64,000 nt of DNA from Minisyncoccia bacterium (GTDB lineage: Bacteria > Patescibacteriota > Minisyncoccia > UBA6257 > 2-01-FULL-56-20). Below, one piece after another: positions 2,454 to 60,826 of this stretch. The position numbers and the translations under genes were made by a program. The notes under the pieces are model-generated. The model was not told the origin of the DNA and did no database searches. It worked only from the letters and a program-made list of their open reading frames with translations. The stretch lies in assembly GCA_050008535.1 (NCBI GenBank), contig JBEKML010000001.1, positions 327,050-391,049 on the forward strand. Reading direction: 5' to 3'. Each line of letters starts with the position of its first letter. Position 1 is the first letter of the stretch.

Positions 2454-3115
2454 TAGATCATTTTGTCGCGCAATTTATCTTGGAAAACTATCGCCGGACC
2501 ATCGCCGATCTTGATGCTTTCTCTTAGATTTACCTCGAGTTGCATCGGGGAAATTTCCTTATAAAACATAGTTACCATGCCTACATTAAAATCGATATCA
2601 TCTGAATCGGCGGCGGTCACGATATATATCGGCAAAGAATCTTCCTTGATGGCCATATCGTAGAGCGGTTTGAAGTCGGTAATGTCGCGATGACTTCCTA
2701 AAATGATGCTGTAAGATTTCAGTCTCGGTCGTATTTTCTTTTCTATAAAGTCGCTGAAAGATTTTTCGTGCGATGTAAATTCTTTTACGTCGCAGACCAT
2801 CTTGTTGAATAAGGGGCGCGGACCAGATAATTCTTTTACGGAGAGTATATTGACATCATTTTCCGGCCCGGTTGGAAATTCGAGAAAGTGCTCCTTGTTT
2901 TCCCAATGATTCAGCGCCGCTGCTGCAAATAATGCAAAATAGCCTTCGCGTAATCTTTTGTATTTCACATTATCGAGGAAGGTGCTTTTATTCGGAGCAT
3001 TCCTATATATTTCTTCAAAGACCTTATAAACACTCGGTAGGGGCAGCATTCTATCCAACGAGAAAATATCCGTTTGGGTTTCTGCGATTCTTTTTAGAAA
3101 TTCGCCCTGGTCCAT
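2453..3115 (-). CDS. hypothetical protein (220 aa), AT-rich cargo gene of unknown function
   Basis: Long AT-rich ORF translationally coupled to the 297-aa ORF. Lies between tRNA-Ser and the serine recombinase. No motif recognised. Confidence 0.5.
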   Translation of the reverse strand: MDQGEFLKRIAETQTDIFSLDRMLPLPSVYKVFEEIYRNAPNKSTFLDNVKYKRLREGYFALFAAAALNHWENKEHFLEFPTGPENDVNILSVKELSGPRPLFNKMVCDVKEFTSHEKSFSDFIEKKIRPRLKSYSIILGSHRDITDFKPLYDMAIKEDSLPIYIVTAADSDDIDFNVGMVTMFYKEISPMQLEVNLRESIKIGDGPAIVFQDKLRDKMI

Positions 3116-3177
3116 AGCGAAAGAATTATAGCAAAAATCGCGGCCACTCGGGTCGCTCCGATAAGAAATTGTACCTG

Positions 3178-3264
3178 CGGAGGCGGAAGGATTCGAACCT
3201 TCGAAGGGATTCCTCCCTTAACATCTTAGCAGGATGCTGCCTTAAGCCGCTCGGCCACGCCTCC
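3178..3264 (-). tRNA. tRNA-Ser (anticodon GCU), long variable arm
   Basis: Reverse complement reads GGAGGCG TG GCCGAGCGGCTTAAGGC A GCATC CTGCTAA GATGT, then the variable hairpin AGGGA..TCCCT, then GAAGG TTCGAAT CCTTC CGCCTCC G. Cloverleaf checked by hand. Confidence 0.8.
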
Positions 3265-3331: not shown

Positions 3332-4816
3332 ATGGCAAGCGAAATTCCTGGGAAAAATATAAAACCGCGTCCGCCGATCGTGGTTGTCGTGGGGCACGTT
3401 GACCACGGGAAGACGACGCTTCTGGACTACATCCGGAAGACGACGGTTGCCGCGCGCGAAGCGGGCGGCATTACGCAGGCCGTGGGCGCGTATGAAATTG
3501 TGCATGCGCCGGCCGCCGGAGGCCCGGCGCGGAAGATCACTTTCATTGACACGCCCGGGCACGAGGCGTTCACGGCGATGCGTTCGCGCGGCGCGCAGGC
3601 GGCGGACCTCGCCGTTCTTGTGGTTGCTGCTGACGAGGGCGTGAAGCCGCAGACAAAAGAAGCGATAAAAATTTTGGAAGAGACAAAAACGCCGTTTGTT
3701 GTCGCGCTCAATAAAATTGACAAGGTGCAGGGCGGCAATCTTGAAAAAGCGAAGACGGATCTCGCGAACGCGGGCGTGTTGCTGGAGGGCTACGGAGGGC
3801 AGGTGAGCTATCACGGCGTTTCTGCAAAGACAGGCGAAGGCGTGAGCGATCTTCTGGATCTTATTCTTCTTTCCACCGACGTTGAAAATTTGACCTACGA
3901 TGCGGCCGCCGCCGCGAGTGGATTTGTGCTTGAAGCGCGGCGCGATCCGCGGCGCGGCATTGAAGCGAGCGTAATCGTAAGGGAAGGAACGCTCCATCGC
4001 GGCGATGCAGTAAAGACGCACACCGCAAGCGGCAAAGTGAAGATACTCGAGGATTTTACGGGGAAAGCCGTTGATGTTTTGGAGCCGTCCGCGCCGGCGG
4101 TGATCATCGGTTTTGAGAAGCTGCCGAACGTGGGCGAAGTGTTCGCGGTGGGGGAATTGAAAGAGGCCCAATCGCCGCAGGCGCAGGAGGCGATCGCAAC
4201 GCAGATCGCAAAATCAAAGCCGAATACCTTGAATTTGATCCTTAAGGCCTCCGACGCGGGTTCGCTTGAAGCGCTTTTGGTCGTTTTGAAGAGCGTTGAT
4301 AAACAGGGTGGCAAGGAGATCAACGTGGTTGAGGAATCGGTCGGTGATGTGACCGACGGCGACGTGCGCCGCGCGCAGGCGACAAATGCCACGATCATCG
4401 GGTTCAAAAACAAGGTGGAAAAAGGCGCAAGGAACCTTGCGGATGCACAGACGGTCATGATCATCACTTCAGATGTCGTTTATGATCTTGCGAAGGCCGT
4501 GGAAGATTTTCTTACGGGGAAATTAGGTCCGGCAACGGCGGGCGAACTTGAAGTGCTTGCGGTCTTCAATCAGGAAAAATTGGACAAACAGCTGATTGGC
4601 GGCCGTGTGGAGAAAGGAACATTCCGTGCGAAAGCGTCGTTTGAGATTTTGCGCGGGAGCGGCACGCCGAAAACCTCGCTCGGCACCGGCCGTGCCTTGA
4701 GCTTGCGCGAGAAAAAATCAGAGATCGCGACGGCTGAAAAAGGAAAAGAGATCGGCATCCTCGCGAGCTCGCAGATTGCGATCCAGGTGGGCGATACGCT
4801 CGTCATCCATAAATAA
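3332..4816 (+). CDS. infB: translation initiation factor IF-2 (short form, G domain + C-terminal domains)
   Basis: G1 motif [16 protein letters not shown] and [12 protein letters not shown] shows G4. The ATG at 3332 follows a TTG at 3326. At about 495 aa it lacks the long N-terminal region of typical IF-2. Confidence 0.85.
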
Positions 4817-4835
4817 TTTTGCGAAATAATTTCCC

Positions 4836-5165
4836 ATGCGTTTTTTCCGTTCCGAGCGGGTACAGGCGTTGATCCAGGAGGAGCTTGCGAAAATTATGGT
4901 GCGGGAAGTGGAATTTCCAGACGCACTTCTTACGATTACGAGCGTTGAAGTTGATAAGAAGCTGGACCACGCACGGGTCAATGTGAGCGTTATCCCGTCT
5001 TCCTCGGGGCCTGCGGCGCTCGCCGGACTCACGAAGCGTACGGGCCACCTTCAGCATCTTTTAATGAAAAAGATGAATATCAAACCCATGCCGCGTATCG
5101 CGTTTGCGCTTGATCGCGGCCCCGAAAATGCCGCGGCGGTTGAAAAAGCGCTGTTAAAAAAGTAA
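4836..5165 (+). CDS. rbfA: ribosome-binding factor A
   Basis: Lies immediately downstream of infB (conserved synteny). Size and sequence are RbfA-like (ALIQEELAKIMVREVEFP...VSVIP). Confidence 0.8.
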   Translation: MRFFRSERVQALIQEELAKIMVREVEFPDALLTITSVEVDKKLDHARVNVSVIPSSSGPAALAGLTKRTGHLQHLLMKKMNIKPMPRIAFALDRGPENAAAVEKALLKK

Positions 5166-5176
5166 GATAGGGGCAT

Positions 5177-5251
5177 GGCCACGTAGCCAAGTAGCAAGGC
5201 GAGGGTCTGCAAAACCCTTATACGCGGGTGCGATTCCCGCCGTGGCCTCCA
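5177..5251 (+). tRNA. tRNA-Cys (anticodon GCA) with encoded CCA
   Basis: Acceptor GGCCACG/CGTGGCC. Anticodon stem AGGGT/ACCCT with loop CUGCAAA. The T-loop is atypical (TGCGATT). Ends with CCA. Confidence 0.7.
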
Positions 5252-5253
5252 GG

Positions 5254-5781
5254 ATGAACAAAAGCATGCTCCAAGTAATAATTATCATCATCTTTGTGTT
5301 TCTCGTGGGAGGCGTGATTGGCTATTTTGCCTGGGGGAAAAAACAAACCTCTGTTCCTGGGCAAACGTCAAGCCGGAAAATAACGTATGTGACCCTAAGT
5401 ATAGCGGCGCCGTTTTCCAATGCTGTGCTTACCATTAAAGAAGATGGTTCCATCGCCTATTGGGCCCAGGAGCCCAACCAGGCGAGAATCAAGGATTCCG
5501 GGACTCTGACCCTGCCCCAAATAAAAGAGCTTAACGACTTGATTGAACAAAATAATTTCTTTGAAATGAAAAGTAACAACGATAATCCCACTGGCATGAC
5601 GGACGGTTCCACGTACGCTATTGCCGTTAGTTATGTTTTATCCGGTCAACTAGATGGCAGTGCTGTCCCCATAACATACTTGGTAAGTTGTTATGAACCG
5701 GACTGCGAGTTCGGCTTTTCGCAGATCAGAGACAAAATTCTTAGCCTTTGGGGTAAAGACGTTTTGAATGTCGGTGTTTGA
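5254..5781 (+). CDS. hypothetical membrane-anchored/secreted protein (175 aa)
   Basis: ATG at 5254. N-terminal hydrophobic segment VIIIIIFVFLVGGVIGYFAW. AT-richer than the genome. Lies between two tRNA genes. Confidence 0.45.
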   Translation: MNKSMLQVIIIIIFVFLVGGVIGYFAWGKKQTSVPGQTSSRKITYVTLSIAAPFSNAVLTIKEDGSIAYWAQEPNQARIKDSGTLTLPQIKELNDLIEQNNFFEMKSNNDNPTGMTDGSTYAIAVSYVLSGQLDGSAVPITYLVSCYEPDCEFGFSQIRDKILSLWGKDVLNVGV

Positions 5782-7408: not shown

Positions 7409-8569
7409 ATGCTTGGAAAAGGACTTGAATCGCTTATACCACAGAAGGGGAATGGGGCCGGCGCTGCCGGATCGGACGGCGTTTCGTCGCAGCCGCCGGC
7501 GTCCGAACCCGAGGTGCAGCGCGAGGAACAGCGTAGTGAACCACATGAAGAGTCTTATGGGGGAGGTACATTGCAGCAGCCGCCGCCGCCGCAAATTGTT
7601 TCCGTGCCGCCCATGATGCCACCTGTTGTATTGTCGCCCGTGACAACGCCCGCCGCGACTGCCGCGAAAGTGTTTGAAGATCGGCGCCAGGACAAAACCG
7701 GCAAACCAGAGGAGATACAGTCTGTTTTCCATATTGAGATAGACAAGATCAAGCCGAACCCGACCCAGCCGCGGCGGAATTTTGACGAAGGGGGGCTCCG
7801 CGACCTTGCGCATTCCATCCGCGAGTTTGGATTTTTGCAGCCGCTTGTGGTTTCGCGGGTTGAAAAGGAAACAATAGATGGCGTGGGCGTCGAATATCAA
7901 TTGATCGCCGGCGAGCGGCGGCTCATGGCTGCGAAGATGCTGGGGCTTGCGACGGTGCCGGCCATTGTGCGGAATGTGGACCTTGAGCGCGAGAAATTGG
8001 AGCTCGCGGTGATCGAGAATATCCAGCGTGAGAATTTGAATCCAATAGAGGCTGCGCGCGCATTCCAGCGATTACAGGAAGAATTCCGTATGACCCAGCG
8101 CGAGATCGCGGCGAAGCTCGGCAAATCCCGCGAGGTCGTGGCGAACGCCGTCCGGCTGCTTGATCTGCCGGAAGAGATCCGGGTGGCGGTAGAGAAGGGC
8201 GATCTTTCGGAAAGCAGCGCGCGCATGCTCTTGGCAATCGGCGATCCGGGCGCGCAGAAACGCCTCTTTGAGGATATCGTGCAAAATCGGCTTACGACGC
8301 GGGATGTGAAGGAGCGTGTGCAGCAGTTCAGCGCGAGCACGGGCACGGGCGTGGCCGGAGCTCACGGGCACCGCCGCGGGCGCCCGCCGAAGAGCGCGGA
8401 AGCGCCGCTGCCTACGGAACTCCGCGCGATGCAGGAATCGCTTTCAAGCGACCTCGGTGCGCCCGTGGAGATTCATAAGGGCGCGAATACCGGGCGCATC
8501 ACGATCACCTTCTATTCCGAAGAGGAACTGGAAAATATCTTGCGGAAACTGGGAAAGGAGCGATTCTAG
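7409..8569 (+). CDS. parB: chromosome partitioning protein ParB/Spo0J with Pro-rich N-terminal extension
   Basis: ParB box GFLQPLVV...IAGERRLMAAKMLGL and an HTH region. The first roughly 100 aa are low-complexity Pro/Gln-rich. The ATG at 7409 follows a TTG at 7403. Confidence 0.85.
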   Translation: MLGKGLESLIPQKGNGAGAAGSDGVSSQPPASEPEVQREEQRSEPHEESYGGGTLQQPPPPQIVSVPPMMPPVVLSPVTTPAATAAKVFEDRRQDKTGKPEEIQSVFHIEIDKIKPNPTQPRRNFDEGGLRDLAHSIREFGFLQPLVVSRVEKETIDGVGVEYQLIAGERRLMAAKMLGLATVPAIVRNVDLEREKLELAVIENIQRENLNPIEAARAFQRLQEEFRMTQREIAAKLGKSREVVANAVRLLDLPEEIRVAVEKGDLSESSARMLLAIGDPGAQKRLFEDIVQNRLTTRDVKERVQQFSASTGTGVAGAHGHRRGRPPKSAEAPLPTELRAMQESLSSDLGAPVEIHKGANTGRITITFYSEEELENILRKLGKERF

Positions 8570-24743: not shown

Positions 24744-27700
24744 ATGCAAAACAAGAAATTCATCGTAGTCGGCGTTGTTATTGGGTGCATCATTATTTTT
24801 GCCCCAAAGGCATTTGCTTCAGATAGATATTATGTAGGTGGAACGGCAAACTGGAGCGCGACTTCAAGTTGGGCTACAACTTCCGGCGGCAGTCCCGGGG
24901 CGTCTATACCGACCCCTGCCGATAATTGCTTTTTTGACGCAAGCTCCAGTCCCACTTCTTATACCGTCACGTTAACTGCCGCGGTCAGCTGTAAAGACAT
25001 TACCGTCGTCAGTCCACCTTCGGGCAATGCGACTATTGGTGTCAATAATTATAATATGGCTGTTTACGGCTCAATGGATTTGGCCACTGGAACGGTTGTC
25101 AGTATAGGTACTTCTGGCGTCTCTTTTGCCGCGACTTCCAGCGTCCAGACTATTAGAACGAGAGGAACGTCCTTTGTCATAGTGTCTTTTACTGGTTCTG
25201 GCGCAACTTTCCGACTGCTTGATAATCTTACAGTAAGTTATCAGATAGGTTTAAGTGCCGGGAGGATATTTGATGCCAATGGCCAGACAGTTATTTTTCC
25301 TAGTTCAACTAATGCTTATGTATCGGGTGATTTTACATTTTATAACCTAACTCGTAATACGAATGCAGCAAATAGGAATCTCTATCTCGGCGGCAATATA
25401 ACTATCACTGGCACCTTAACCTTGAATGGTTATAGTGCCACCACTAGCCGTTCGCTTCTTGTTTCACAAACTTCGGGCGCACAAACTGCGGGCATAACCA
25501 GAACAATAACTCTTTCAGGGGCAAGTGCTACTTTGTCTGTTTCTAATATAGACCTTGAAGATATAGCAGGAGCGGTGGCCAATGGAGCTAGTGCCGCTCT
25601 ATGGGATTTATCGGCTATTTCGGGACTTTCCGGCGATTGCGGTGGAAATAGTGGGATAACTTTTACCAATCCCCAAACCCAATACTATAAACATCCAGGA
25701 ACTGCTAATGCGTCCTGGTCAGGTGCTAATTGGTATGCCTCAGACCATGCTACCCTTCAGCGGGTTCCTTTGCCGCAAGATGATGTTGTATTTAATGTGG
25801 GTGCGTTTGCGGCAACCGGAAAGAAGATCACGATGGATATGCCAAGGGGGGGCAAGAGTATAGATTTTAGCGCGGTTGAGTATACTCCTACTTTTGCCCT
25901 GGATAGCACCAGTAATACCATTTACGGTTCTCTGACATTGGGAACAATGGGCAATAGCAATATTATCGCTATGGGTGGTAACGCTTTCGTTTTCGGAGGC
26001 AGGAGCGCTTACACTTTGAAAAGCAACGGCAATACTTTTTCTTCTGCCGGAAATTGGAGCTTTACTTCAAACGCTCCGGGTGGGTCTTTGACTTTAAAAG
26101 ATAACTTGAATATGGTAGGTGGCACAGCGGTGACGCTGACGACAGCCAATGGAACTTTTAGCGCGGTGGATGGTGCGAACAATTATGCTATTACTACAGG
26201 CAGGATCGGCGTAAGCGCCTCAGGAACCATTGCTCTGGGTTCGGCAACTCATCTATTAACCGGGACGGGAGCGGTGTGGACCGGCACGGGAATAGTAAAT
26301 GCCGGTAGCTCAACGCTTAAATTCACCAATACTGGCACTTCCACGATCTCATTTACGAGTGGAACTAAAACCTACAACAACGTTTGGTTCTCTCGCGGGG
26401 GGAGCACGGCTTCAACCACAATTACCGGAAACAACACCTTTAATGATTTTAAGGATGACGGGAATGCTGCTCACTCAATTCTTTTCACCCACGGAACGAC
26501 GTCCACAGTTCAAACATTCACGGTGACGGGTAATGGTGCGGGAAATGAAATAACCATAAACAGCGATACGGCAGCGACCCATTCGTTAGTAAAATTAGGC
26601 GGGGGGACGATTTCCAGTGATTACTTGAATATCCAACACTCCGTAGCTTCTCCGGTAAATACGTGGTATGCGGGAACCAACAGCATAAATAATCAAGCAG
26701 TGGCAACGGCGGGAAGCGGGTGGATATTCACGAGTCCGCCCGTCCCCGGCGCGCCGGGGACGCCCACCTATACAAGTGTGAGCTCCAGTACGCTTACGGT
26801 GAACTGGGCTTCTTCAACGGGTGCCACCTATTACAAAATGGAACGCGCGACCTCTTCGCAATCCTACCTCCAAATCGCGACCACGAGCGCCCTTTCCTAC
26901 GCCGATACGGGGCTCACCGCGAACACGACGTTCTTTTACCGCGTCCGGGGGACGAACGGCAACGGCGACGGTCCGTACAGCACAAGCTCGAGCATTCTCA
27001 CCTTGCCCGACGTTGTTTCTCCGGCGCCGACCTATGCGAACATAGGGACAAGCACCGTGACCGTGAATTGGACCACTCCGACGGGCGGCGCGGCATCATA
27101 TATCATCCAGCGCGCAACCTCTTCGCAATCGTATGCCCAAGTCGCAACAACAACCGCGATTTTCATAAACGACAGCGGCCTTGCGCAGAGCACCATCTAT
27201 TTCTATCGCGTGCAGGCCGCGAATGCGACGGGGAACGGGCAAGTGAGCGCAAGTTCCAGCGTGACGACCACGGGAGTGAATTCGGCACCCAATGCGCCTT
27301 CGGAAGATTTACCCGCGAATAATTCGCAAGGCATAAGCATAACTCCGGTTTTCGAAATGACTGCGACTGATCCCGAAAGCAACAATTTACAATACAGAGT
27401 GGTTATCTATTCCAACTCCGGCTGTACGGCCGTCGTTCAGACCAATGATCAAAGTGCGTCGCAGACCGGCTGGTCGGGCCAGAATGCTTCCTCGAGCTAT
27501 GAATATATCTCGGGCACCCAAGGGGTCTTCGCGACGCAGTCCGCGCTCTCGGCAAATACCACCTATTACTGGATAGCGAATGCGAAAGATCCCGAAGGAT
27601 CAAATACGTGGGGCGCCTCTTCAACCTGCAACGGCTTTACGACGGCCTACGGCAGCTGGGCCACGGATTCGGGGAATTGGAGCGTGAGCAGCAGCCAGTA

Positions 27701-37833: not shown

Positions 37834-38655
37834 ATGAAGATTTTCACATGGAACGTGAACGGGATACGGTCGATATTTAAGACCACGTTCCGTGACTGGC
37901 TTCAATCCAACGATCCCGACATAGTTTGTCTTCAAGAAATAAAAGCGGATTCCGAAGAGTTGGCGGAGGAGTTTTCCCAAATTGACGGCTATTATGCTTA
38001 TTTCAACTCCTCTTCTTTAAAAAAAGGGCATTCCGGGACGGCTGTCTATACGAAAATAAAACCTGTTTTAGTAGAGACAAAGCTAGGGATTGAACGATTT
38101 GACGATGAGGGACGCTGTCTTAAGTTGATATTTAAGGATTTTATCCTGTTCAATTTTTATATTCCAAACGGTAGCAGGGACAAGCATGACATGCCGTACA
38201 AGCTGGAAGTCTATAAAAAGCTTTTTCCAGTCTTTCGATCGCTTGCGAACAAAAACACGATCCTTGCGGGAGATTTCAATATTGCGCATACGGAACTCGA
38301 TGTTTACCATGCAAAACAGAATCAGAACAATACCATGTTCACTCCTGAAGAGCGGGAGCAAATCACCAAGCTTTTAAGTTTAGGATACGTTGACGCTTTC
38401 AGATACAAATATCCGGAGAAAAAGTCATATACTTGGTGGCCGTATATGAACAACCTGCGCGCGCGGGACATTGGCTGGAGGATAGATTATTTCTTTGTTG
38501 CCAAACCGCTTGAGCCCCTTATCAAAGATGCCTTTACCCAAAGAGAAGTTCTTGGGTCAGATCATGGGCCTTGTGGGATTGCCTTGAACAAATCCGCAGA
38601 GATTGCCGAACGACCGACCTATGCCAAAATAAAATCACCAGCAGAGCTTTTTTGA
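37834..38655 (+). CDS. xth: exodeoxyribonuclease III (AP endonuclease family)
   Basis: MKIFTWNVNGIRS N-terminus, LQEIK, and the C-terminal catalytic region EVLGSDHGP (D and H). Confidence 0.9.
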   Translation: MKIFTWNVNGIRSIFKTTFRDWLQSNDPDIVCLQEIKADSEELAEEFSQIDGYYAYFNSSSLKKGHSGTAVYTKIKPVLVETKLGIERFDDEGRCLKLIFKDFILFNFYIPNGSRDKHDMPYKLEVYKKLFPVFRSLANKNTILAGDFNIAHTELDVYHAKQNQNNTMFTPEEREQITKLLSLGYVDAFRYKYPEKKSYTWWPYMNNLRARDIGWRIDYFFVAKPLEPLIKDAFTQREVLGSDHGPCGIALNKSAEIAERPTYAKIKSPAELF

Positions 38656-38724
38656 AAACCTGTCCGAGATTCGACATCGCCTAGATAGGCCAGCCGGATT
38701 TCATTAAAAAATTCTAAAATGTTT

Positions 38725-38752
38725 CTTGACGGTGACGGCCGATGCGCTATAA
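38725..38752 (+). promoter_or_regulatory. near-consensus sigma70-type promoter (TTGACG-16nt-TATAAT)
   Basis: -35 TTGACG at 38725-38730, 16-nt spacer, -10 TATAAT at 38747-38752. Lies about 300 nt upstream of ftsZ. Confidence 0.5.
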
Positions 38753-38806
38753 TACCCTTGAGATGGGATAGTCTGTAATAGACGACGGACTAGTTCTCAC
38801 TTTCCA

Positions 38807-38843
38807 TGAGAAACGGCCACTTCGGTGGCCGCTTCTCATTTTA
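38807..38843 (+). terminator. hairpin plus U-tract about 55 nt downstream of the promoter (terminator/attenuator of a short transcript)
   Basis: GAGAAACGGCCAC TTCG GTGGCCGCTTCTC followed by ATTTTAT. A second T-run GCGTTTTTTAAGC lies at 38849-38861. Confidence 0.45.
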
Positions 38844-39069
38844 TATCAAGCGTTTTTTAAGCTAATTTTAATCACCTTTTTGCTATGGTTCGTTCGCCGT
38901 GGATCATGGGGCCGTCGTCCATTACAGTTAGGATCTCATCTTTGGAAAGTGAGGAACCGGGTGCAAATCCCGGCGGCTCCACGGCACAGGAGGGCCTCTG
39001 CGAGGCCCTCCTGTTTTGGCCGTATCCACAGGTGGCACGCCAGCGGAAGATTTGTTATTATTGAATCAA

Positions 39070-41496: not shown

Positions 41497-43290
41497 ATGA
41501 ATACAGAGGCGCGTGTTTGCGGGAATTGTAAACGTCAATTCGTCATTGAGCCGGAGGATTTTCAGTTCTACAAAAGAATAGACGTTCCGCCGCCGACGTG
41601 GTGTCCGGAATGCCGCCTTATCCGGCGGCTCATCTGGCGCAATGAGCGCACCCTTTATCGCCGGAAATGCGACGCGCCGGGCCACAACGAGACGCTCATC
41701 TCTTACTACCCGCCCGAAAAGCCCTACAAGGTGTATGACCAAGCGTATTGGTGGTCCGACTCATGGGACGCGGCCGACTATGGGAAGGAGTACGACTTTT
41801 CCCGACCATTTTTTGAACAATTGAAGGAACTTTTTCTGCAAGTGCCGCGTGCCCATCTTTCGGTCAATCATGCGACCATGATCAATAGCGATTATTCTAA
41901 TTGGGCCGGTGATTGCAAGAATTGCTATCTGGTAACGGATGCGGACTACGTTGAGGATTCCGCATATTGCTCAAGTATTTTTAAGTCAAAAGACTGTTTT
42001 GATTGCAACAATATTTCGGAATCCGAGCTTTGTTACGAGGGATATAATCTTGGAAAGTGCTATCGCGTCATTGCTTCGGTGAACTGTCGCGATTCCTCCG
42101 ACGTTCTTTTTTCAAAAGGGCTTGTTGGCTGTTCAAATTGTTTTGGCTGCATCAACTTGCGGAAGAAGGCATACCACATTTTTAACCAACCATATTTAAA
42201 AGAAGAATATTATCAGAAAGTTGGCTCATTATTCGACGGTTCCCGCGAATCTTTCGGACGCATGGTCGCCCAGGCCGAAGAACACTGGCTTCGATATCCT
42301 GCGAAACACCTGCGTGGAATCCGGAACGTAAACTCGTTCGGCGATTATATCTATAACTGCAAAAATGTGACCTACGGGTTCCACGTCACGGGTGCGGAGA
42401 ACAGCAAATATATCACCCTCATACACTCCCCGAACGTGAAAGATTGTTTTGATTACACCGACTGGGGAGACAATGCGCAATTAATATACGAAAGCATTGC
42501 ATGCGGGCTCGGCGTATCAAATCTAAAATTCTGCAACCTTGTGGTGCTCAATTCCAAAAACGCTTCCTATAGTTATTTTTCTTATGGTTGCTCCGATATT
42601 TTCGGCTGTGCCAATCTGCGGAAGAAACAATACTGCATTTTGAATAAACAATATACCAAACAAGAATACGAATCGCTCCTCCCGAAGATCATTGAACATA
42701 TGAATGCGATGCCCTACGTTGATAGCAAGGGGAGAACATATCGCTACGGCGAATTATTCCCTCCGGAACTCTGCGGTTTTGCTTATAACGAAAGCATGGC
42801 GCAGGAGTTCTTTCCGCTGAACCGCGAGGAAGCGCTCGCGAAGGGGTTTGCGTGGCGGGATCCGGATGAGCGCCCTTATCAATCAACGCTTTCTTCCGAC
42901 AAGGTTCCCCAGACCATTCACGAGGTGCCGGATCGGATTACTGATGAAGTTATCGCATGCGCGCACAAAGGCGCTTGCAAACAGAGTTGCACCGTGGCAT
43001 TCCGGATCGTTCCGCCCGAACTCCAGTTTTATCGGAGGATGAACCTTCCGTTGCCCGCTCTTTGTCCGAACTGCCGGCATTATGAGCGGTTGAAGCATCG
43101 GAATCCCCTGAAGCTTTGGCATCGCGAATGTTCCTGTGCAGGATCAAAATCAAAAAGCGGGGTTTATGCCAATACCATTGCCCATTCCCACGGTGCAAAT
43201 CCTTGCCCCAACGAATTTGAAACCAGCTACGCCCCGGATCGACCGGAAATCGTGTATTGCGAACAATGCTATCAGGCAGAGGTGGCCTGA
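41497..43290 (+). CDS. cysteine-rich hypothetical protein (597 aa) with homologous zinc-ribbon modules at both termini
   Basis: N-terminal CGNCKRQF...FQFYKRIDVPPPTWCPECRLIRRLIWRN and C-terminal CTVAFRIVPPELQFYRRMNLPLPALCPNCRHYERLKHRN are clear internal homologs. The central region carries many spaced Cys (DCFDCNN, GCSNCFGC, GCANLRKK). Confidence 0.5.
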   Translation: MNTEARVCGNCKRQFVIEPEDFQFYKRIDVPPPTWCPECRLIRRLIWRNERTLYRRKCDAPGHNETLISYYPPEKPYKVYDQAYWWSDSWDAADYGKEYDFSRPFFEQLKELFLQVPRAHLSVNHATMINSDYSNWAGDCKNCYLVTDADYVEDSAYCSSIFKSKDCFDCNNISESELCYEGYNLGKCYRVIASVNCRDSSDVLFSKGLVGCSNCFGCINLRKKAYHIFNQPYLKEEYYQKVGSLFDGSRESFGRMVAQAEEHWLRYPAKHLRGIRNVNSFGDYIYNCKNVTYGFHVTGAENSKYITLIHSPNVKDCFDYTDWGDNAQLIYESIACGLGVSNLKFCNLVVLNSKNASYSYFSYGCSDIFGCANLRKKQYCILNKQYTKQEYESLLPKIIEHMNAMPYVDSKGRTYRYGELFPPELCGFAYNESMAQEFFPLNREEALAKGFAWRDPDERPYQSTLSSDKVPQTIHEVPDRITDEVIACAHKGACKQSCTVAFRIVPPELQFYRRMNLPLPALCPNCRHYERLKHRNPLKLWHRECSCAGSKSKSGVYANTIAHSHGANPCPNEFETSYAPDRPEIVYCEQCYQAEVA

Positions 43291-51957: not shown

Positions 51958-52530
51958 ATGAAATTTGACGAAGAAAGGTTAATACAAATTGCCAAGCCCT
52001 ATATTAAAAAAGGGCGGGCAGGCGATTGGGAGCATGCCCAGGCAGCGGTTGAATGGGTAAAGAAATTAGGGGCGGGGCGAGATGATTTGAATTTGCTTAT
52101 TTCTGCCGCCTACATACATGATATCGGTTGGTCGGGAATCGGCATGGGGAAAAAACTGGATTTAAACGGGGTACTTGAATTTGGTCCTCAAGCAAACAAA
52201 AATTCTCAAGCACTGGTTTCTAAAGTTCTATCTAGTTTGGATTTCAGTGGGTCAGAAATTGAAACGGCAAATCGCCTGGTCGCAGCGGCCGACAAGCATT
52301 ACGCCGAAAAGGAGGATGAAGCCATAATTGTGGACGCAGATAATTTAAGCAAGCTAACAATGGAACAACTCCGAGAGAAATATGAGCCAAAAGAATTTTT
52401 GAAGCTTATAGATCGCTGGGAGGCCGAGATGCCGAAAAGAATAAAAACCGAAATCGGGAAAAACACGTATCCCAAAGCCTTAAAGGATTTAAGGGAGCAA
52501 ATCAACAAAAATGCCAACGAAAAGATCTAA
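51958..52530 (+). CDS. HD-domain protein (putative phosphohydrolase)
   Basis: H...HD motif (AAYIHDIGW), with a preceding His in EHAQAA. Inserted inside the Fe-S cluster operon. Confidence 0.5.
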   Translation: MKFDEERLIQIAKPYIKKGRAGDWEHAQAAVEWVKKLGAGRDDLNLLISAAYIHDIGWSGIGMGKKLDLNGVLEFGPQANKNSQALVSKVLSSLDFSGSEIETANRLVAAADKHYAEKEDEAIIVDADNLSKLTMEQLREKYEPKEFLKLIDRWEAEMPKRIKTEIGKNTYPKALKDLREQINKNANEKI

Positions 52531-54927: not shown

Positions 54928-55125
54928 CGGCTCAACTATGAAAACGGAGAGCGGTTGACAAGAAAATCAAAAAATGTAAAGTGGGATTTTACATCAGTGC
55001 TGGACGTCTATCTGCGGACCTACGCCAAGTATCGGAAAAGTGACCACGGAAATACATTCCGCTATTAATTGGTGCCGCCGCGGGAAATCCTTCAGTGTAT
55101 TGATTCCTCCTCCTTTTTAAGGGTA

Positions 55126-55180
55126 TTGACTATTTTGTAAATATGCCCTATCCTTACAAATAGGTCGTGTTCTATATAAA
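55126..55180 (+). promoter_or_regulatory. putative promoter with overlapping palindromic operator upstream of the island cassette
   Basis: TTGACT at 55126-55131, then TATCCT / TATATAAA as candidate -10 elements. Palindrome TTGTAA-N13-TTACAA at 55135-55159. Confidence 0.3.
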
Positions 55181-55197
55181 TTATTAGCCCATTTAAT

Positions 55198-55410
55198 ATG
55201 GAAAATAAAAAGGATAGGTTTAAGCGTTTGGCTACTGCAAGAACCAATGGGGTTTTGAGGTCGCTTAAAGTGCTTGGCAATTGTGCCAACAGGAGTGCCT
55301 ATGATTACAGCGAAGAGGAAGTTAATAAGATTTTTTCGGAAATTGAACGTCGTGTCCGGGAGATAAAGGCGAAATTTCATTTCGGCAAAAATAAGGAATT
55401 TAAACTGTAA
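55198..55410 (+). CDS. hypothetical small basic protein (70 aa), first gene of the island cassette
   Basis: AT-rich ORF 14 nt upstream of the GHKL gene. No motif recognised; could be a regulator. Confidence 0.4.
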   Translation: MENKKDRFKRLATARTNGVLRSLKVLGNCANRSAYDYSEEEVNKIFSEIERRVREIKAKFHFGKNKEFKL

Positions 55411-55423
55411 ATCTACCGCATCA

Positions 55424-57421
55424 ATGAATCCAACTATTTATGCCGGTCGGCAGTTGCGAAATGACGAAAAGAACCTGAAGGCGATCGCCGATGGCTATGA
55501 GGTAAAACTTGGTCATAAATATTGGTTGGCGGAAGCGCTACAAAAAGATGCGATTCAAAATGGATGGGACGCTGGACATGGGAAGGAATGGAGTATGCGT
55601 TTTGAATTGAAAGGTGCCCAAGCTAGCTTTTTAATGATTCAAGATTCTTGTACTAGCGGGCTAAACGGAACTATATGGAAAGATCAGGAGGAATTGACAT
55701 CGATCTTGGAGAACGGAGATCGGACCGAAAACCTGGCGCATTTTTTGAGTTCCGATTTTAGCACAAAAACAGCGGAAAGCGGCGGAAAACGAGGAAGGGG
55801 TAAGTCCATATTCCTTTTTGCTTCGCAAAATTTGATATTTTATTTTGACTCACAGAGAGCGTCTTCTCGCGATTACGTCGCCGGAGCAATTTTCATAGAT
55901 TCTGACAAGGGAGCTAAGGTGGAAATGACAAGTGGCGATGCTGCTACGAAATACATGAAAGAGAAAACCGGAGAACACTATTCGCCCATTAAGACCAGCG
56001 GCACGCGTATTTTTATCAAGAACCCTCGGGAGGAGGTTGTCGTGGCGATCCGTGATGGCTCCATGATAAATTTCATCGAGAAAAACTGGTGGGAGATAAT
56101 AAAAAAATACGGCGCTCACATCACAGTATGCGATGGCACAGACACGAAGCAGGCGCAGGTCCCGATGTGGTATCGTGAAGACCTTTGTAAAGAAAAAGGG
56201 TTGGAACCGAAGGAATATCCGAACCTTAAGCTATCTTCCGGCGACAATAAATATCGGATTAAAAGAGTTTTTCTCATTTACAACCCAATGGGAGATACCC
56301 CGGAATCGCTCGTAGGCATCTCCATCCAACGAAAGGGGATGAGCATTGAGAGGAGGTCAACAGAAGCGCTGGTCAAGGAAGATGGCATGAGCAAGGTCTA
56401 TGGGTGGGTGGAGATGGAGCCGGAGTTGGAACATGCCATGTATGATCTCGAGGATGTTGAGCATCTTGGTTTTATTTGGACCAAAAAGCCAGCTAAAGAT
56501 TTGTTGGATTTGATAAAAATTCAGATACGAGATTTTGCGAAGGAAGTTAAATTGATCGAGAGCGAGCTGTCAAAGGAACATAAGGCCCATAAGCAAATCG
56601 AAGATGACATTGCAAAGAAGGTAAATAATTTTTTAAAAAACATCGGCTTCTCCGGGTTGGCTCTCACAAAGAGAAAAAGAACGGGAAAGAAAAGGATAGG
56701 AGAAATACCATTGAGGATATCGCTCGCAGATTTTAAATTGGCAGGAGGAAGCCGCCGCGTTAACTACGGAGAAACAATTAATGCGATTGCTGTAGTTGTA
56801 AATGAATTGGATATCTCCCTTCACGCCATCCATAGGACCTGGATTACGGATGAAGGAGGAAGAGTGGCAAAGATAAAAGAGGAGGAGATAGATTTGCATA
56901 AAGGTATTTCGCGGGCGCAGGGATGGGAACGAATGAAAGTTTCGAAGGAGGAGTTTCCTCCGGGTGATTACTCTTTCAAGTCAAAACTCACCCTCTTAGA
57001 AGATACCGACAAAGAACTACCTCGAATTGGAAGACTTGAGAAGGGAAAAGAAATTATTGTCTCAACTGCTTTTTCCGTAGAAAAAGATCCAAAAGCGCAA
57101 GGGTTTATTAAATTCGAACCGATCGTTGATAAGAACAAAGAGCGTTATATCACCACAAGACCGGAGGCCGGCGTTCTGGTCGTGGAATACAACACTCAGC
57201 ATCCGTATATCAGCAATCTTATGCCGACTGAACGCGCTGCTGATTTGGGAAGATTTCTTCTTGAGACAGGGATCATCATTGCGTTCAATGAAGTTATGGC
57301 GGAGGACATTTCTTCTGATAAGCCAAGGGTCTTTACGGACGTCAATGATGATTACGATATAACTAAGATTTTGCCCCGCGTCATGGAAGAGGTGAGTAAA
57401 TTTATGTGGCAATATCAATGA
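55424..57421 (+). CDS. GHKL/Bergerat-fold ATPase (MORC/MutL/Hsp90-like HATPase) with about 470-aa unknown C-terminal region
   Basis: All four Bergerat motifs in order: N-box DAIQNGWDAG (D42,N46,D49,A50), G1 IQDSCTSGLNG, G2 ESGGKRGRGKSIFLF (GxxGxGKS), motif IV SGTRIFI. No similarity to histidine-kinase dimerisation or MutL C-terminal domains was noticed. Confidence 0.6.
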   Translation: MNPTIYAGRQLRNDEKNLKAIADGYEVKLGHKYWLAEALQKDAIQNGWDAGHGKEWSMRFELKGAQASFLMIQDSCTSGLNGTIWKDQEELTSILENGDRTENLAHFLSSDFSTKTAESGGKRGRGKSIFLFASQNLIFYFDSQRASSRDYVAGAIFIDSDKGAKVEMTSGDAATKYMKEKTGEHYSPIKTSGTRIFIKNPREEVVVAIRDGSMINFIEKNWWEIIKKYGAHITVCDGTDTKQAQVPMWYREDLCKEKGLEPKEYPNLKLSSGDNKYRIKRVFLIYNPMGDTPESLVGISIQRKGMSIERRSTEALVKEDGMSKVYGWVEMEPELEHAMYDLEDVEHLGFIWTKKPAKDLLDLIKIQIRDFAKEVKLIESELSKEHKAHKQIEDDIAKKVNNFLKNIGFSGLALTKRKRTGKKRIGEIPLRISLADFKLAGGSRRVNYGETINAIAVVVNELDISLHAIHRTWITDEGGRVAKIKEEEIDLHKGISRAQGWERMKVSKEEFPPGDYSFKSKLTLLEDTDKELPRIGRLEKGKEIIVSTAFSVEKDPKAQGFIKFEPIVDKNKERYITTRPEAGVLVVEYNTQHPYISNLMPTERAADLGRFLLETGIIIAFNEVMAEDISSDKPRVFTDVNDDYDITKILPRVMEEVSKFMWQYQ

Positions 57422-58011
57422 ACATGGCTATCAAATTACGCAGAGGAGAAAATTTTTTCTATGCCCCGGTGACTGGTTTGCTTGATAAAAAAGAGCAGAA
57501 GCGCGCGGACGAAATATACACAAGCGCTAAGAATGCCGTAGAAAAATTAAACAAAACGAGGCGGAGCGGAACGATAGATATTCTTGCCGGGTGGCACCTG
57601 AGAGGTGTTTTAATAAATCAGATTATCCAAAAATTTGGGATAACCGAAACTGAAAAAAAGTATTTTTGGATGATGCTTTATGATGTCTCGGGAATGACGG
57701 TGCCGGACCATATTCGGAAAAACGATTTTCATGTGGCCAGCATTTTAGCAAACTATCCATTAAAGAGATTACAGGAAATCGGGGCTTGGAGTATGTGGCG
57801 AGAGATTATTGGGTCTACTAAGATTGGAAACGATGATAGGGTGGCGCGATGGGTGGTGGACTACATTGTCGAAAAAAAGATAAAAACCAGAGATCAGGCC
57901 AGGCCTTTATTGATGGCGGTTCGAAACAGGCTGAAGAGGATTGATGCTTCTATCTTAAGTAGCGGAGAATTAGCGAATAAATTGCAAGAGGTCGTAATAA
58001 AAAACAATTGA
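57418..58011 (+). CDS. hypothetical protein (197 aa), translationally coupled to the GHKL ATPase
   Basis: Its ATG at 57418 overlaps the GHKL stop (ATGA). Predicted mostly helical. No motif recognised. Confidence 0.5.
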   Translation: MNMAIKLRRGENFFYAPVTGLLDKKEQKRADEIYTSAKNAVEKLNKTRRSGTIDILAGWHLRGVLINQIIQKFGITETEKKYFWMMLYDVSGMTVPDHIRKNDFHVASILANYPLKRLQEIGAWSMWREIIGSTKIGNDDRVARWVVDYIVEKKIKTRDQARPLLMAVRNRLKRIDASILSSGELANKLQEVVIKNN

Positions 58012-58019
58012 AATTATCC

Positions 58020-59132
58020 ATGGAAAGTTCAGCTAAAGAATGTCCCGTCTGCGGCAAGCCGCTGACCCAGGAAGAGTACGACAAGGCTCTTGGTATCTGG
58101 AAGGCCAAGCACGAAGAAATAAAGCATTTGGAAAAGGAGAGGGCCGATCTCAAGCAGCAGGCTGCTTCGCTGAAAAAAGAAAAGGCTGAAGCGCGACGTG
58201 CGGCCAAGCTTCTTATAGCAGAGCAGAAACGGAAATCTGTCGCCGAGCTACGCCAATCACGACTTTTAATGAAAGAGGTATTTAAGAAGCAGCTAGAAAA
58301 CAAAGTCGGCAAAGCGGTTGCCAGCACCAAGAACAAGATGGGACAGCTGAATCGGAGTTGGAAAATCGCCCTGGAGAAAAACGAGAAGCTCCAGCAGGAA
58401 ATCAAACGGCTAAAAGAACAGCGCGAAAAAGGGATTACTCCGCAGATCGAGGGATTACTTGAAGAAGACAAGCTCTTGGCAAAACTGAAGGAATTATATT
58501 GTCCGCCTGATCAGTTTGAGCATCCAGGCAAAGGTGGCGATATTATCCAGACCGTTATGGAGCAAGGCAAACCCGTAGGGAAAATCGTTTATGAGTGTAA
58601 AAAAGTAAGATCATTTAGTCAAAGCCACGTGAAACAGGCATCCGATGCACGCGAATCAAGGAAAGCAGATTTTGCAGTGCTCGTGACCAATGCATTTCCC
58701 GCCAAGAGACAATCCTATTTTGTTTCCAATACGGTATATGTTATTAGTCCCGTAAGCGTTGAAGCCGTAACTTATACGCTACGCGAATTTCTTGTCAGAA
58801 TAGCCTTGCTCCGATTGTCGAATGCGGCAAAAGAGAAAGCCGTCAATGAGATTTACAAATACATGTCCGGAAACGAATATAGCGATAAGGTTAACGGAAT
58901 GGCGTCCCAGCTCTTAACGCTCAGGGGTGATTTGAAATCAGAAATTAACTCGCATTGGCAGATATGGAAAAAGCGCTACGCATCCTATCAAACTCTCTTT
59001 GTGGATCTTGGCACTATAGATTCCCGGCTGAAGAGTTTGCTGGCGCTTGGAGACGGTGACCGAGAAACGCCGAAGCTAGCCGCAGGACAACAAAAAACTT
59101 ATCCTCCACTTGAGGAACTCGAAAGGAAATAA
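58020..59132 (+). CDS. Zn-ribbon / coiled-coil / PD-(D/E)xK nuclease-fold protein
   Basis: N-terminal CPVCGKP. About 130 aa of Lys/Glu-rich heptad-like coiled coil. C-terminal restriction-endonuclease-like core FEHPGKGGDIIQTV...GKIVYECKKV (E, D, ExK motifs). Starts 8 nt after the upstream stop (alternative TTG at 58008 would overlap the stop). Confidence 0.55.
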   Translation: MESSAKECPVCGKPLTQEEYDKALGIWKAKHEEIKHLEKERADLKQQAASLKKEKAEARRAAKLLIAEQKRKSVAELRQSRLLMKEVFKKQLENKVGKAVASTKNKMGQLNRSWKIALEKNEKLQQEIKRLKEQREKGITPQIEGLLEEDKLLAKLKELYCPPDQFEHPGKGGDIIQTVMEQGKPVGKIVYECKKVRSFSQSHVKQASDARESRKADFAVLVTNAFPAKRQSYFVSNTVYVISPVSVEAVTYTLREFLVRIALLRLSNAAKEKAVNEIYKYMSGNEYSDKVNGMASQLLTLRGDLKSEINSHWQIWKKRYASYQTLFVDLGTIDSRLKSLLALGDGDRETPKLAAGQQKTYPPLEELERK

Positions 59133-59189
59133 CTTCCTTCGGTCCACATAAAACAACCTATCCCGACTGTTTTTACCAGACATCCATTC

Positions 59190-60806
59190 ATGAGAATAAC
59201 GGAATTCAAAATTAAGAATTTTAAATGTATTGGCCCTGAACCAATCACTCTAGACTTCACGGAAGATATTCTTGTTCTTATTGGGCAAAATAATGTTGGA
59301 AAGTCATCAGTGCTAAGGGCCCTTGATTTCTACTTTTCAGGGACTAAGACATTGCCAGAAAAATACTTTTATAACCACCAGCATGACCAAGATCATGCCG
59401 TAGTCATTGAACTAAAATTTAGCGACCTTTCTAGTCAGGATAGGGTTCACCAAGCCGTATCGCCGTATATCTCTACCGATAATTCTTGGATTCTCAGAAA
59501 ATCTTACTATTACGATAGCGATGGTGGAGGTAAATGTGATTACGCCGCTATTGTTGATGGCGCAGAGAAGAAAAATCCAGCGGGCCTGACACAAAACTGC
59601 GACAATCTCTTTGTCGGCGACAAAATGCAAAAGATCTTTGTAGAGGCGGTAAAAGATGTGTCTGATGTGGTGGAGGGGAAAAGCAAATCAACATTTGGAC
59701 AGATATTTAGCATAATCCTTAAGAATGCAGTAGAGGCAACAAGTGAATATACATCACTACTTGATGCGCTCCGCGCATATCAAAATCTTTTCCGGGGCGC
59801 AGGCCAATTATCGCAGATTACGCAAGTGGAAAATACCATCAACGAAAGACTGGCAAGAATAATTAGCGCAAGCAGCAAAATAGATACGGAATCGCCGCAA
59901 GTAGAGAAATTTATGCCAGCACCAAAACTCCTAACAGACGACGGGAGAGGAATCGACATTGATCCTACCGAACAAGGCCATGGCTTACAGCGAGCTTTAA
60001 TATTTGTTTTATTAGAATTACTAGCGGAGACAACTAGTCCCATGACTAAAGAAGTAGGCCCTAGAAACTTATTAATGATTGAAGAACCTGAAATTTATAT
60101 GCATCCGCAAATGCTAAGGAAGATAGCTGATACTCTCTATGAAATTGCTTCACAAGGTAAGGCACAAGTGATCTGCACTACACACTCACCCATTTTCATC
60201 AGAATCGCAGAAAAACAGAAGGCGTTAGCCCGCTTTGTCAGAAAAGAAGATAATTCGCTTACCGTTTTTCAGCAAAAGACGGATATTTTCTCTGGAGCCG
60301 GAGCAACAGAATTAAAGAAACAACTACAAATGATTACCAACTTTGATCCCGCAGTGAACGAGTTATTCTTTGCGAGAAGGGTGGTGCTTTTAGAAGGAGA
60401 TACTGAACTTGCCGTATTTCGTGAGGCTCCAAACTTATTGTTCGCGGGGAACAAAAATAACCTCCGTGATTGTCGGGATACCACTGTTATCAACTGTAGG
60501 GGCAGAAACACCATCCCATTGTTTCAAGAGATTCTAAACCACTTTCAAATTCCTTACGTTGTCATTCACGATACCGAAGGAGAAGATAAGACCAGCGGTA
60601 TAAACGGTAAAATTCTTGGATTACTTGGCGGTGATGAATCAAAACGTAAAATGTTCAGTCCTAATATAGAAGATGGTTTAGGTATTACGGACAGAGGAGG
60701 CAATAAGTCAATCAAAGCCCTGGATCGTATCCAAGAATTGAATGGCCTCGGTCAATTAGAGGGGAAAATAGGAAGTTACATAAGATTCGCTTACAACATT
60801 CCATAG
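59190..60806 (+). CDS. OLD-family nuclease (N-terminal ABC-type ATPase + C-terminal Toprim), class-1-like standalone architecture
   Basis: Walker A GQNNVGKSS, Walker B/D-loop LLMIEEPEIYMHPQ, H-loop VICTTHSP. Toprim Glu VVLLEGDTELAVF and acidic cluster VVIHDTEGED. No adjacent UvrD-like helicase. Confidence 0.75.
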   Translation: MRITEFKIKNFKCIGPEPITLDFTEDILVLIGQNNVGKSSVLRALDFYFSGTKTLPEKYFYNHQHDQDHAVVIELKFSDLSSQDRVHQAVSPYISTDNSWILRKSYYYDSDGGGKCDYAAIVDGAEKKNPAGLTQNCDNLFVGDKMQKIFVEAVKDVSDVVEGKSKSTFGQIFSIILKNAVEATSEYTSLLDALRAYQNLFRGAGQLSQITQVENTINERLARIISASSKIDTESPQVEKFMPAPKLLTDDGRGIDIDPTEQGHGLQRALIFVLLELLAETTSPMTKEVGPRNLLMIEEPEIYMHPQMLRKIADTLYEIASQGKAQVICTTHSPIFIRIAEKQKALARFVRKEDNSLTVFQQKTDIFSGAGATELKKQLQMITNFDPAVNELFFARRVVLLEGDTELAVFREAPNLLFAGNKNNLRDCRDTTVINCRGRNTIPLFQEILNHFQIPYVVIHDTEGEDKTSGINGKILGLLGGDESKRKMFSPNIEDGLGITDRGGNKSIKALDRIQELNGLGQLEGKIGSYIRFAYNIP

Positions 60807-60826
60807 AATTTATCCTGGGCGCTGGA

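Follow-up and report, generated by a model that had tools for sequence, protein, structure and literature searches.

The 64-kb stretch of contig JBEKML010000001.1 analyzed here (the window) belongs to the chromosome of a Minisyncoccia bacterium from the candidate phyla radiation (CPR), and carries at 54,930-60,810 a low-GC island of five co-directional, tightly packed genes, g1 to g5. We lean, without great confidence, toward reading these genes as a defense island in which two separable modules share one co-directional array: module A (g1-g2-g3), built around a MORC/MutL-like GHKL ATPase, and module B, a DUF2130 protein followed by an OLD-family nuclease. Each of the five open reading frames (ORFs) has homologs elsewhere, and they are thus real genes. 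From left to right, the island comprises:

54930..55197, + strand: left island edge and a 268-nt AT-rich leader 5′ of g1, where the GC profile dips to 30-32% at 55.10-55.20 kb
55198-55410, + strand: g1, 70 aa (from the ORF list; homologs elsewhere)
55424-57421, + strand: g2, 665 aa (from the ORF list; homologs elsewhere)
57418-58011, + strand: g3, an ORF of 197 aa (from the ORF list) with a probable start at 57424, giving ~195 aa
58020-59132, + strand: g4, 370 aa, a DUF2130 protein (Pfam PF09903)
59190-60806, + strand: g5, 538 aa, OLD family (PADLOC Old)

The composition of the island sets it apart from its surroundings. Its GC content is 42.9%, against 54.2% in the remainder of the window, and is the lowest among all 5.9-kb sliding windows (minimum 0.430, median 0.541), while GC at third codon positions (GC3) is 38-49% in g1-g5 versus 68-73% in the flanking genes for NifU, an FAD-dependent reductase, and an ADP-forming acetyl-CoA synthetase. 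On the strength of these differences, we consider the island horizontally acquired. The shift spans ~100 nt at each edge, at ~54.88-54.93 kb on the left and ~60.80 kb on the right. An earlier reading made from the letters and ORF translations, with no database searches (the sequence-only reading), had described a low-GC, tightly packed block with no integrase or tRNA at its borders, and this description is borne out: no tRNA, integrase, flanking direct repeat, or att site was found at the edges. An Rfam search of the leader and edges matched no family, and promoter-like and terminator signals at the island did not rise above the level of shuffled sequence. The gene spacing was also correctly described in the main, with 8 nt before 58020, 57 nt before the OLD gene, and an ATGA overlap of the g2 stop with an ATG at 57418-57421; the gap after g1, however, measures 13 nt rather than 14, and the overlapping ATG, although present in the sequence, is probably not the true start of g3. 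In homologs and in an NCBI model of 195 aa the first residues are MAIKL, which puts the probable start of g3 at 57424, 2 nt past the g2 stop.

At the heart of module A is g2, which consists of a GHKL (Bergerat) domain at residues ~1-230, an S5/transducer domain at ~232-350, long helices at 357-406, and a C-terminal part in which an Ig-like β-sandwich (~430-590) is followed by a helical hairpin. The succession of Bergerat fold and S5/transducer domain marks g2 as a GHKL ATPase, and GHKL motifs I-IV are invariant or nearly so across 47 sequences: D42xxxN46xxD49, D74xG76TxxG79, G121xRG124xG126K, and G193-T194. Invariant positions in the alignment extend to D74xGTxxGLxG, GxRGxGK127, GT194, Q302-R303, E343xxxH347, and H593, and the C-terminal region carries invariant ExxxH and YNxxHP residues. 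The general-base position of motif I is occupied by Asp42, where Glu is usual. Even with a 47-sequence profile, g2 matched nothing in Pfam (HATPase models included), NCBIfam, PADLOC, PHROGs, or PDB sequences. For MORC in the strict sense, searches of Pfam, NCBIfam, and PDB gave no match at E 0.1-1; for MutL, neither Pfam nor NCBIfam gave a match, and the C-terminus of g2 is the Ig-like sandwich and helical hairpin. Profile searches, which the sequence-only reading had proposed as a means of exposing a housekeeping protein, therefore place g2 in no MutL or other known family, and the label MORC-like GHKL ATPase is justified as far as the GHKL motifs and S5/transducer domain go, although no MORC-type HATPase model matches. 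A PADLOC PDC-S06 match to g2 (E 0.007) was dismissed, as it falls in the coiled-coil helices. Long g2 variants (~790-850 aa), checked for an inserted effector domain, gave weak Zn-ribbon and Ig-like signals only.

Module A is by no means confined to this genome. Among 83 g2 loci, 76 from a pattern scan that took a single genome for each GTDB species and seven from exact-protein look-ups (with g1, g2, and g3 neighbors called using iterated hidden Markov models (HMMs) over all ORFs of the loci), g3 lies directly 3′ of g2 in 75, and the remaining loci are truncated contigs or pseudogenes. In essence, g2 and g3 are the invariant core of the family, and g3 is the obligate partner of g2. An AlphaFold2 (AF2) model of g3, built on a shallow alignment (word-indexed homolog searches gave 7-11 proteins), shows an N-terminal β-hairpin followed by an all-α bundle (pLDDT 87.5, pTM 0.83). 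The model matched no PDB fold (best E 0.5), and the sequence matched nothing in Pfam, NCBIfam, PADLOC, PHROGs, or PDB sequences. Only G63, W124, and W127 are invariant across 40 g3 sequences, none of them enzyme-like, and g3 looks like an adaptor rather than an enzyme.

The slot 5′ of g2, by contrast with this core, varies. In one clade the core pair is joined by g1, which lies immediately upstream of g2 in 32 of the 83 loci; the slot is filled by c4—a ~346-aa protein with no Pfam match and no nuclease-like conserved motif—in ~18-22, and by a VapBC-type PIN/AbrB pair in ~8. A basic, helical protein of 70 aa with invariant residues F8, R15, N31, Y35, and Y37, g1 is the most conserved member of module A and is under far stronger constraint than its ATPase neighbor, with identities of 60-80% in loci where g2 identity is only 26-39%. 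In L005, for instance, g1 identity is 80% against 38% for g2, and across L004, L005, L006, L019, and L077 it is 72-80%, where g2 and g3 reach only 36-44%. Sequence and profile searches with g1 matched nothing in Pfam, NCBIfam, PADLOC, PHROG, or PDB, and g1 and c4 are unrelated (hhalign probability 0.2%). A profile match of g1 to DnaA stems from L078 alone, where a DnaA domain-IV segment precedes g1 in frame, and is no property of g1 itself. At that locus (7416-7994), where g2 identity is 59%, g1 and the domain-IV (Bac_DnaA_C) DNA-binding segment form one continuous reading frame; the fusion is either genuine, hinting that g1 acts on DNA, or the outcome of an insertion into a dnaA-like gene.

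The g2 family is rare and phylogenetically scattered: at E ≤ 1e-3 it accounts for 665 of 1.84 billion representatives, and its size is put at ~300-650 sequence clusters. Loci with g2-g3 span CPR, Chloroflexota, Atribacterota, Bacteroidota, Ignavibacteriota, Planctomycetota, and Pseudomonadota, and occur also in Omnitrophota, Bacillota, Asgard archaea, Bathyarchaeia, DPANN, and further phyla; the family was not found in PLSDB plasmids, INPHARED phages, or IMG/VR. Its recurrent neighbor is a C5 DNA methyltransferase (Dcm; PF00145), which lies within 5 kb in 40 of the 83 loci and is present in 22 of the 48 that have at least 3 kb of flank on each side. The methyltransferase start often overlaps the g3 stop codon, as in L012, L013, L017, L022, and L025, and the enzyme is accompanied by Vsr in 13 loci and by an HhH-GPD/EndoIII-type glycosylase in 16-17. 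The Dcm link is seen in nine of 10 c4-type loci and in five of 15 g1-type loci, and six of the 15 g1-type loci adjoin a large serine recombinase. Other neighbors of g2-g3 include SoFic, mad3, PDC-S04, GmrSD, Cas12a, restriction enzymes, a FokI-like enzyme, ThsB-TIR, and VapBC pairs, mixed with housekeeping genes. In close relatives the genes 3′ of g3 vary and show no clear family, with one weak HEPN match among them, and one gene following DUF2130 carries an ABC-3C CTD10 domain.

Several of these loci have arrangements of their own. A four- to five-gene variant, c4 (or g1)-g2-g3-Dcm-HhH-GPD glycosylase, has no recognizable restriction enzyme (L045 and L047 are c4-type examples) and is the best candidate for restriction-modification logic within the g2-g3 family. 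In L079, a 526-aa fusion of LexA DNA-binding, S24-peptidase, and C5-methyltransferase domains (3951-5531, − strand) divergently adjoins g1-g2-g3; judged by its domains, it would be an SOS-cleavable methyltransferase of unusual architecture. L104 (1723-8651) runs g1, g2 (624 aa), a 281-aa protein not recognized as g3, DUF6339, DUF6119, and DUF2130, and may be one more form of the module, in which other genes take the middle positions.

Module B begins with g4, which matches Pfam PF09903 at 3e-22 (79.6 bits, against a gathering cutoff of 26.7) and is composed of an N-terminal CPxCG Zn-ribbon, a coiled coil of ~130 aa, and a C-terminal PD-(D/E)xK domain. DUF2130 has been catalogued as a PD-(D/E)XK family with no function assigned (PMC3424549). 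C8, C11, E149, D164, D174, E192, and K194 are invariant in eight diverse members, and the catalytic D...ExK signature (D174, E192, K194) appears intact from the alignment; the sequence-only reading of g4 as a Zn-ribbon/coiled-coil PD-(D/E)xK protein is therefore upheld by family match, conserved residues, and published classification alike. The coiled coil gives weak matches to the Rad50 zinc hook, SbcC, and LmuB. No solved relative of g4 was found in PDB, and g4 gave no match when scanned against viral contigs. Its neighbor, g5, had been taken for a fused ABC-ATPase-Toprim protein of the OLD family, and so it proves: the 538-aa product matches Pfam AAA_15 (4e-41) and OLD-like_TOPRIM (3.4e-14), PADLOC Old (1.2e-77), and phrog_4747 (6e-65). 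The closest solved structure is the Thermus scotoductus class 1 OLD 6P74 (2.8e-22), with which the Walker A, EEPE, THSP, LLEG, and HD..E motifs align.

DUF2130 and OLD are a recurrent and widespread pair that is independent of module A. Among 80 metagenome loci picked solely by canonical DUF2130, an OLD-like gene is adjacent or one gene off in 12; no other single neighbor is as common, with 10 of 79 loci having it on the same strand at a distance of up to two genes, and Pfam confirmed Toprim in four of the six OLD-like neighbors tested. Just one of the 80 loci contains g2. The pair is not described in the OLD literature searched. DUF2130 keeps other company as well. It lies 2 nt 5′ of GajA-GajB on an Aliarcobacter plasmid, ahead of Type I restriction-modification genes elsewhere, repeatedly immediately 5′ of SIR2-HerA pairs, AAA_13 ATPases, SNF2 helicases, and Type III restriction-modification genes in other loci (L087-L166; examples are L125, L148, L120, and L130, and L122, L128, and L145), and near ArdC and WGR genes on rhizobial conjugative plasmids (L085).

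The link between the modules is narrower. Among the 83 g2 loci, a same-strand DUF2130 gene stands at the +1 position directly after g3 in the window, L002, L066, and L078, and one is three genes off in L104; a DUF2130-HMM match in L036 was excluded as a coiled-coil false positive. The window and L078 share a divergent DUF2130 subtype, to which g4 belongs, and L002 and L066 have the canonical EQGSQQLQGE type. An OLD gene follows DUF2130 in two of the 83, the window and L066, an Omnitrophota locus that repeats the order g2-g3-DUF2130-OLD at 24-29% identity and with a longer OLD (644 aa). The sequence-only reading had treated the island as a single five-gene cassette and proposed a search for its GHKL, 201-aa, and PD-(D/E)xK genes side by side in other genomes. 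Such adjacency does exist (L002, L066, and L078), and the four-gene order recurs once; the conserved unit, however, is g2 with g3, joined by g1 in 32 of 83 loci, by a DUF2130 gene after g3 in four, and by OLD in two. That reading had also overlooked the link to methyltransferase, Vsr, and glycosylase, the DUF2130-OLD pairing, and the membership of g1 in the GHKL module.

Comparison with characterized systems agrees with the earlier view that the island is not Gabija, PARIS, or Septu, and that it has no name: it matches no system in PADLOC, NCBIfam, or PHROG, and the libraries and literature searched contain no description of either module. Gabija shares with the island an OLD-family nuclease, and the Aliarcobacter plasmid places DUF2130 right beside GajA-GajB, yet Gabija is a class 2 OLD system and no helicase ORF lies in or beside the island; moreover, g5 scores 1.2e-77 with PADLOC Old against 1e-32 with the best GajA model. 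PARIS (class 4 OLD) has a separate AriA ATPase and AriB Toprim protein, whereas g5 holds both in one 538-aa chain. Septu pairs a PtuA ATPase with a PtuB HNH nuclease, and the island has no HNH and a PtuA model match of 8.6e-10, far under cutoff. The closest likeness for g5 is to class 1 OLD proteins (P2 Old, T. scotoductus 6P74, V. cholerae), with which it shares the fused ABC-ATPase-Toprim architecture, size (538 vs 528 aa), catalytic motifs, and the lack of a UvrD-like gene beside it among the window ORFs. By definition, a class 1 OLD is encoded by one gene that has neither a conserved partner nor a defense gene beside it (PMC10568477). In this respect g5 differs, because DUF2130 and the GHKL module precede it, and the DUF2130 adjacency is seen in at least 12 other loci; g5 is thus class-1-like in size and sequence while departing from the single-gene definition.

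For module A, the pertinent precedents are GHKL ATPases that control a partner. Prokaryotic MORC/paraMORC proteins, with GHKL and S5 domains, were predicted to act in restriction-modification systems (Iyer, Abhiman & Aravind 2008, PMC2292703). Of these, paraMORC2, a term found in this one paper only, is characterized by an ExxxH motif late in the S5 domain and by an SF-II helicase, a DNA methylase, Vsr, and a restriction-enzyme-fold nuclease as neighbors (PMC2292703). Like g2, paraMORC2 combines N-terminal GHKL and S5 domains, has a patchy, lateral-transfer-like spread in bacteria and archaea, and neighbors cytosine methylase and Vsr genes, and its ExxxH signature is present in g2 as the invariant E343 and H347. 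There are also differences. No SF-II helicase partner recurs at the g2 loci; the paraMORC description mentions neither g1, nor the obligate partner g3, nor an Ig-like domain at the C-terminus; and g2 is spread across CPR, Chloroflexota, and archaea, against cyanobacteria and Gram-positives in that description. A restriction-enzyme-fold nuclease is seen at g2 loci solely as DUF2130, in five of them. Because of the frequent operonic link to 5-methylcytosine (m5C) methylation and T:G repair, we would place g2 with the restriction-modification-associated MORC/paraMORC ATPases; judged by the published description of paraMORC2, it may belong to that family.

The only experimentally supported precedent of a GHKL ATPase gating a PD-(D/E)xK nuclease is GHKL-Shedu, the paraMORC3-type VcSduA of V. 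cholerae, an anti-phage protein in which the ATPase is proposed to gate the nuclease (PMC12137116). The VcSduA nuclease (DUF4263) is fused to its ATPase, whereas the DUF2130 nuclease of the island is separate, facultative, and of another family, and g3 is present in addition. MutL with MutH or Vsr, and Topo VI, offer more distant parallels to g2, sharing the GHKL-transducer fold and an ATP-driven dimerization that controls a partner nuclease. For Topo VI the partner belongs to the Toprim type; MutH and Vsr have the restriction-enzyme fold. Unlike these, g2 has no MutL C-terminal domain, the island holds no Spo11/Top6A-like subunit, and its Toprim domain resides in OLD, which is rarely linked to g2. 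The cognate methyltransferase of a classical restriction-modification system is absent from the window and present in about half of the related loci.

From gene content, folds, motif integrity, conserved adjacency, and foreign composition, we infer a defense role for the island, together with the protein–protein interactions and order of events outlined here. Module A may be read as the ATP-driven sensing or restriction side of a restriction-modification-like system, given that about half of its loci are linked to a C5 methyltransferase and a T:G-mismatch repair gene. Like MORC and MutL, g2 would form an ATP-driven dimer around DNA; recognition of DNA or of a partner would fall to g3 together with g1 or c4; and the g2 complex would then license a nuclease, by analogy with MutL, MORC, Topo VI-B, and VcSduA. 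No nuclease is recognizable in g1-g3, so the effector would be a neighbor (here DUF2130), an unrecognized site in g2, or none at all, as in entrapment or silencing. DUF2130 would be the likeliest effector for module A to recruit, since it fills the slot right after g3 here and in a few other loci, and OLD would work with DUF2130 or in parallel. Modules A and B possibly cooperate: in favor is that DUF2130, in two subtypes, keeps strictly to the +1 place behind g3 at four divergent loci, while the rarity of the arrangement and the promiscuity of DUF2130 argue against it.

A number of points weigh against this two-module defense interpretation. There is no experiment on record for any member of the g1, g2, g3, or DUF2130 families. 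With Asp42 in place of Glu, ATP hydrolysis by g2 may be slow or absent. No nuclease or effector fold is detectable in g1-g3, and module A alone has no evident means of harming an invader. No Dcm or other methyltransferase, no Vsr, and no c4 was found in the island, nor did HMMs detect any across the full window, so restriction-modification logic does not literally apply here. Finally, ~78 of the 83 g2-g3 loci lack DUF2130 and 79 of the 80 DUF2130 loci lack g2; the coupling of A to B may be no more than defense-island clustering, and DUF2130 may be a general accessory or standalone defense-island gene, roles that its promiscuity fits as well as that of a dedicated partner.

Among competing accounts, one that is unlikely, albeit worth keeping in view, takes the missing nuclease at face value. 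Here g1-g2-g3 would be a nuclease-free prokaryotic MORC system whose ATPase dimer, loaded by g3 and g1, topologically entraps and silences DNA that is foreign or, where the variant is Dcm-linked, unmethylated, with DUF2130 and OLD as optional additions. Such a system would correspond, in prokaryotes, to the silencing of transposons by eukaryotic MORC proteins. A related alternative, held at similarly low probability, is that the C-terminal region of g2, with its ExxxH and YNxxHP residues, is a new metal-dependent nuclease, which would make g2-g3 an ATP-dependent, m5C-linked restriction enzyme of a new type.

We are doubtful, too, that g1-g2-g3, a standalone DUF2130, and a standalone class 1 OLD are three independent items that merely cluster, with no cross-talk, in what would then be an ordinary defense island with two uncharacterized candidate genes. 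Defense genes are known to cluster in islands, DUF2130 adjoins many unrelated systems, and acting alone is part of the definition of class 1 OLD proteins (PMC10568477). Independence sits poorly, however, with OLD-family genes being by far the commonest partner of DUF2130, on the same strand and within two genes in 10 of 79 loci, and with all four g3-DUF2130 adjacencies being +1 and same-strand.

The converse proposition, that all five genes form one obligate system in which the GHKL ATPase, g3, and g1 sense an invader and DUF2130 and OLD serve as dedicated effectors, strikes us as rather improbable. Co-directionality and tight spacing are in its favor, as are the recurrence of g2-g3-DUF2130-OLD in L066 (24-29% identity) and of g2-g3-DUF2130 in L002 and L078. 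Yet only five of 83 g2 loci have DUF2130 nearby and only two have OLD, at least 11 loci hold a DUF2130-OLD pair but no g2-g3, and a 57-nt gap precedes the OLD gene. Even the best parallel is imperfect, as the window and L066 differ in DUF2130 subtype and in OLD (538 vs 644 aa), pointing to independent assembly.

Weaker still is the case for g2-g3 as a MutL-like accessory of very-short-patch/T:G mismatch repair that travels with mobile C5 methyltransferases and of which the window copy is an orphan remnant. E. coli MutL stimulates Vsr, and such a role would account for the link to Dcm, Vsr, and glycosylase. Half of the loci, the window included, nevertheless lack methyltransferase or Vsr, and g2 lacks the MutL C-terminal domain. 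The Dcm-operonic loci, moreover, have no separate restriction enzyme, which leaves g2-g3 (with c4 where present) as the obvious restriction candidate, and upstream VapBC pairs, DUF2130, and other defense neighbors suit conflict systems better.

Negligible, lastly, is the prospect that the low-GC block is an assembly or binning artifact, which an abrupt composition change without integrase or att repeats might suggest, because L167, an independent contig from another sample and sequencing run, has the same left junction from Fe-S operon/FAD-reductase to g1-g2-g3 and thereby excludes an assembly chimera at the left edge, and an identical g3 is found on a 535-kb Minisyncoccia contig in NCBI.

If the two-module defense reading holds, module A would add a GHKL/MORC-like restriction-modification or defense family with uncharacterized partners, and module B a previously unnoted DUF2130-OLD pairing. 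The locus defines a distinct MORC-like family across many bacterial and archaeal phyla, CPR and Asgard among them, with half of its loci tied to m5C methylation and mismatch repair. To our knowledge, only the nuclease-fused paraMORC3/Shedu form has been tested among the MORC/paraMORC restriction-like ATPases since their prediction in 2008. Module A presents a three-gene, clonable unit with which to ask how ATPases of the MORC-like kind distinguish DNA in prokaryotes and what they do to it; the answer would also have a bearing on how eukaryotic MORC silencing arose. For its part, the DUF2130-OLD adjacency suggests that some "standalone" class 1 OLDs have an unrecognized PD-(D/E)xK partner, and so addresses whether class 1 enzymes really act alone.

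Beyond the island, the window bears other compositional irregularities. A 190-aa gene with weak HD-domain matches (51958-52530, + strand; GC 42.9%, GC3 44.5%) lies between the cysteine desulfurase and NifU genes of the ~54-58% GC Fe-S operon, and has the same placement on L167; its low GC within a higher-GC operon makes it look like a second, single-gene foreign insertion. The window has one recombinase, of the large serine type (92-1576, + strand), which lies 53 kb from the island and adjoins a 42.6% GC kilobase (2001-3000) and a tRNA-Ser (3177-3264). It matches by HMM, at E 2e-108, the recombinases that flank g1-g2-g3 in other loci, and the region may be another integrated element. Three further 1-kb stretches, at 25001-26000, 38001-39000, and 42001-43000, have 44-47% GC against a background of ~54%.

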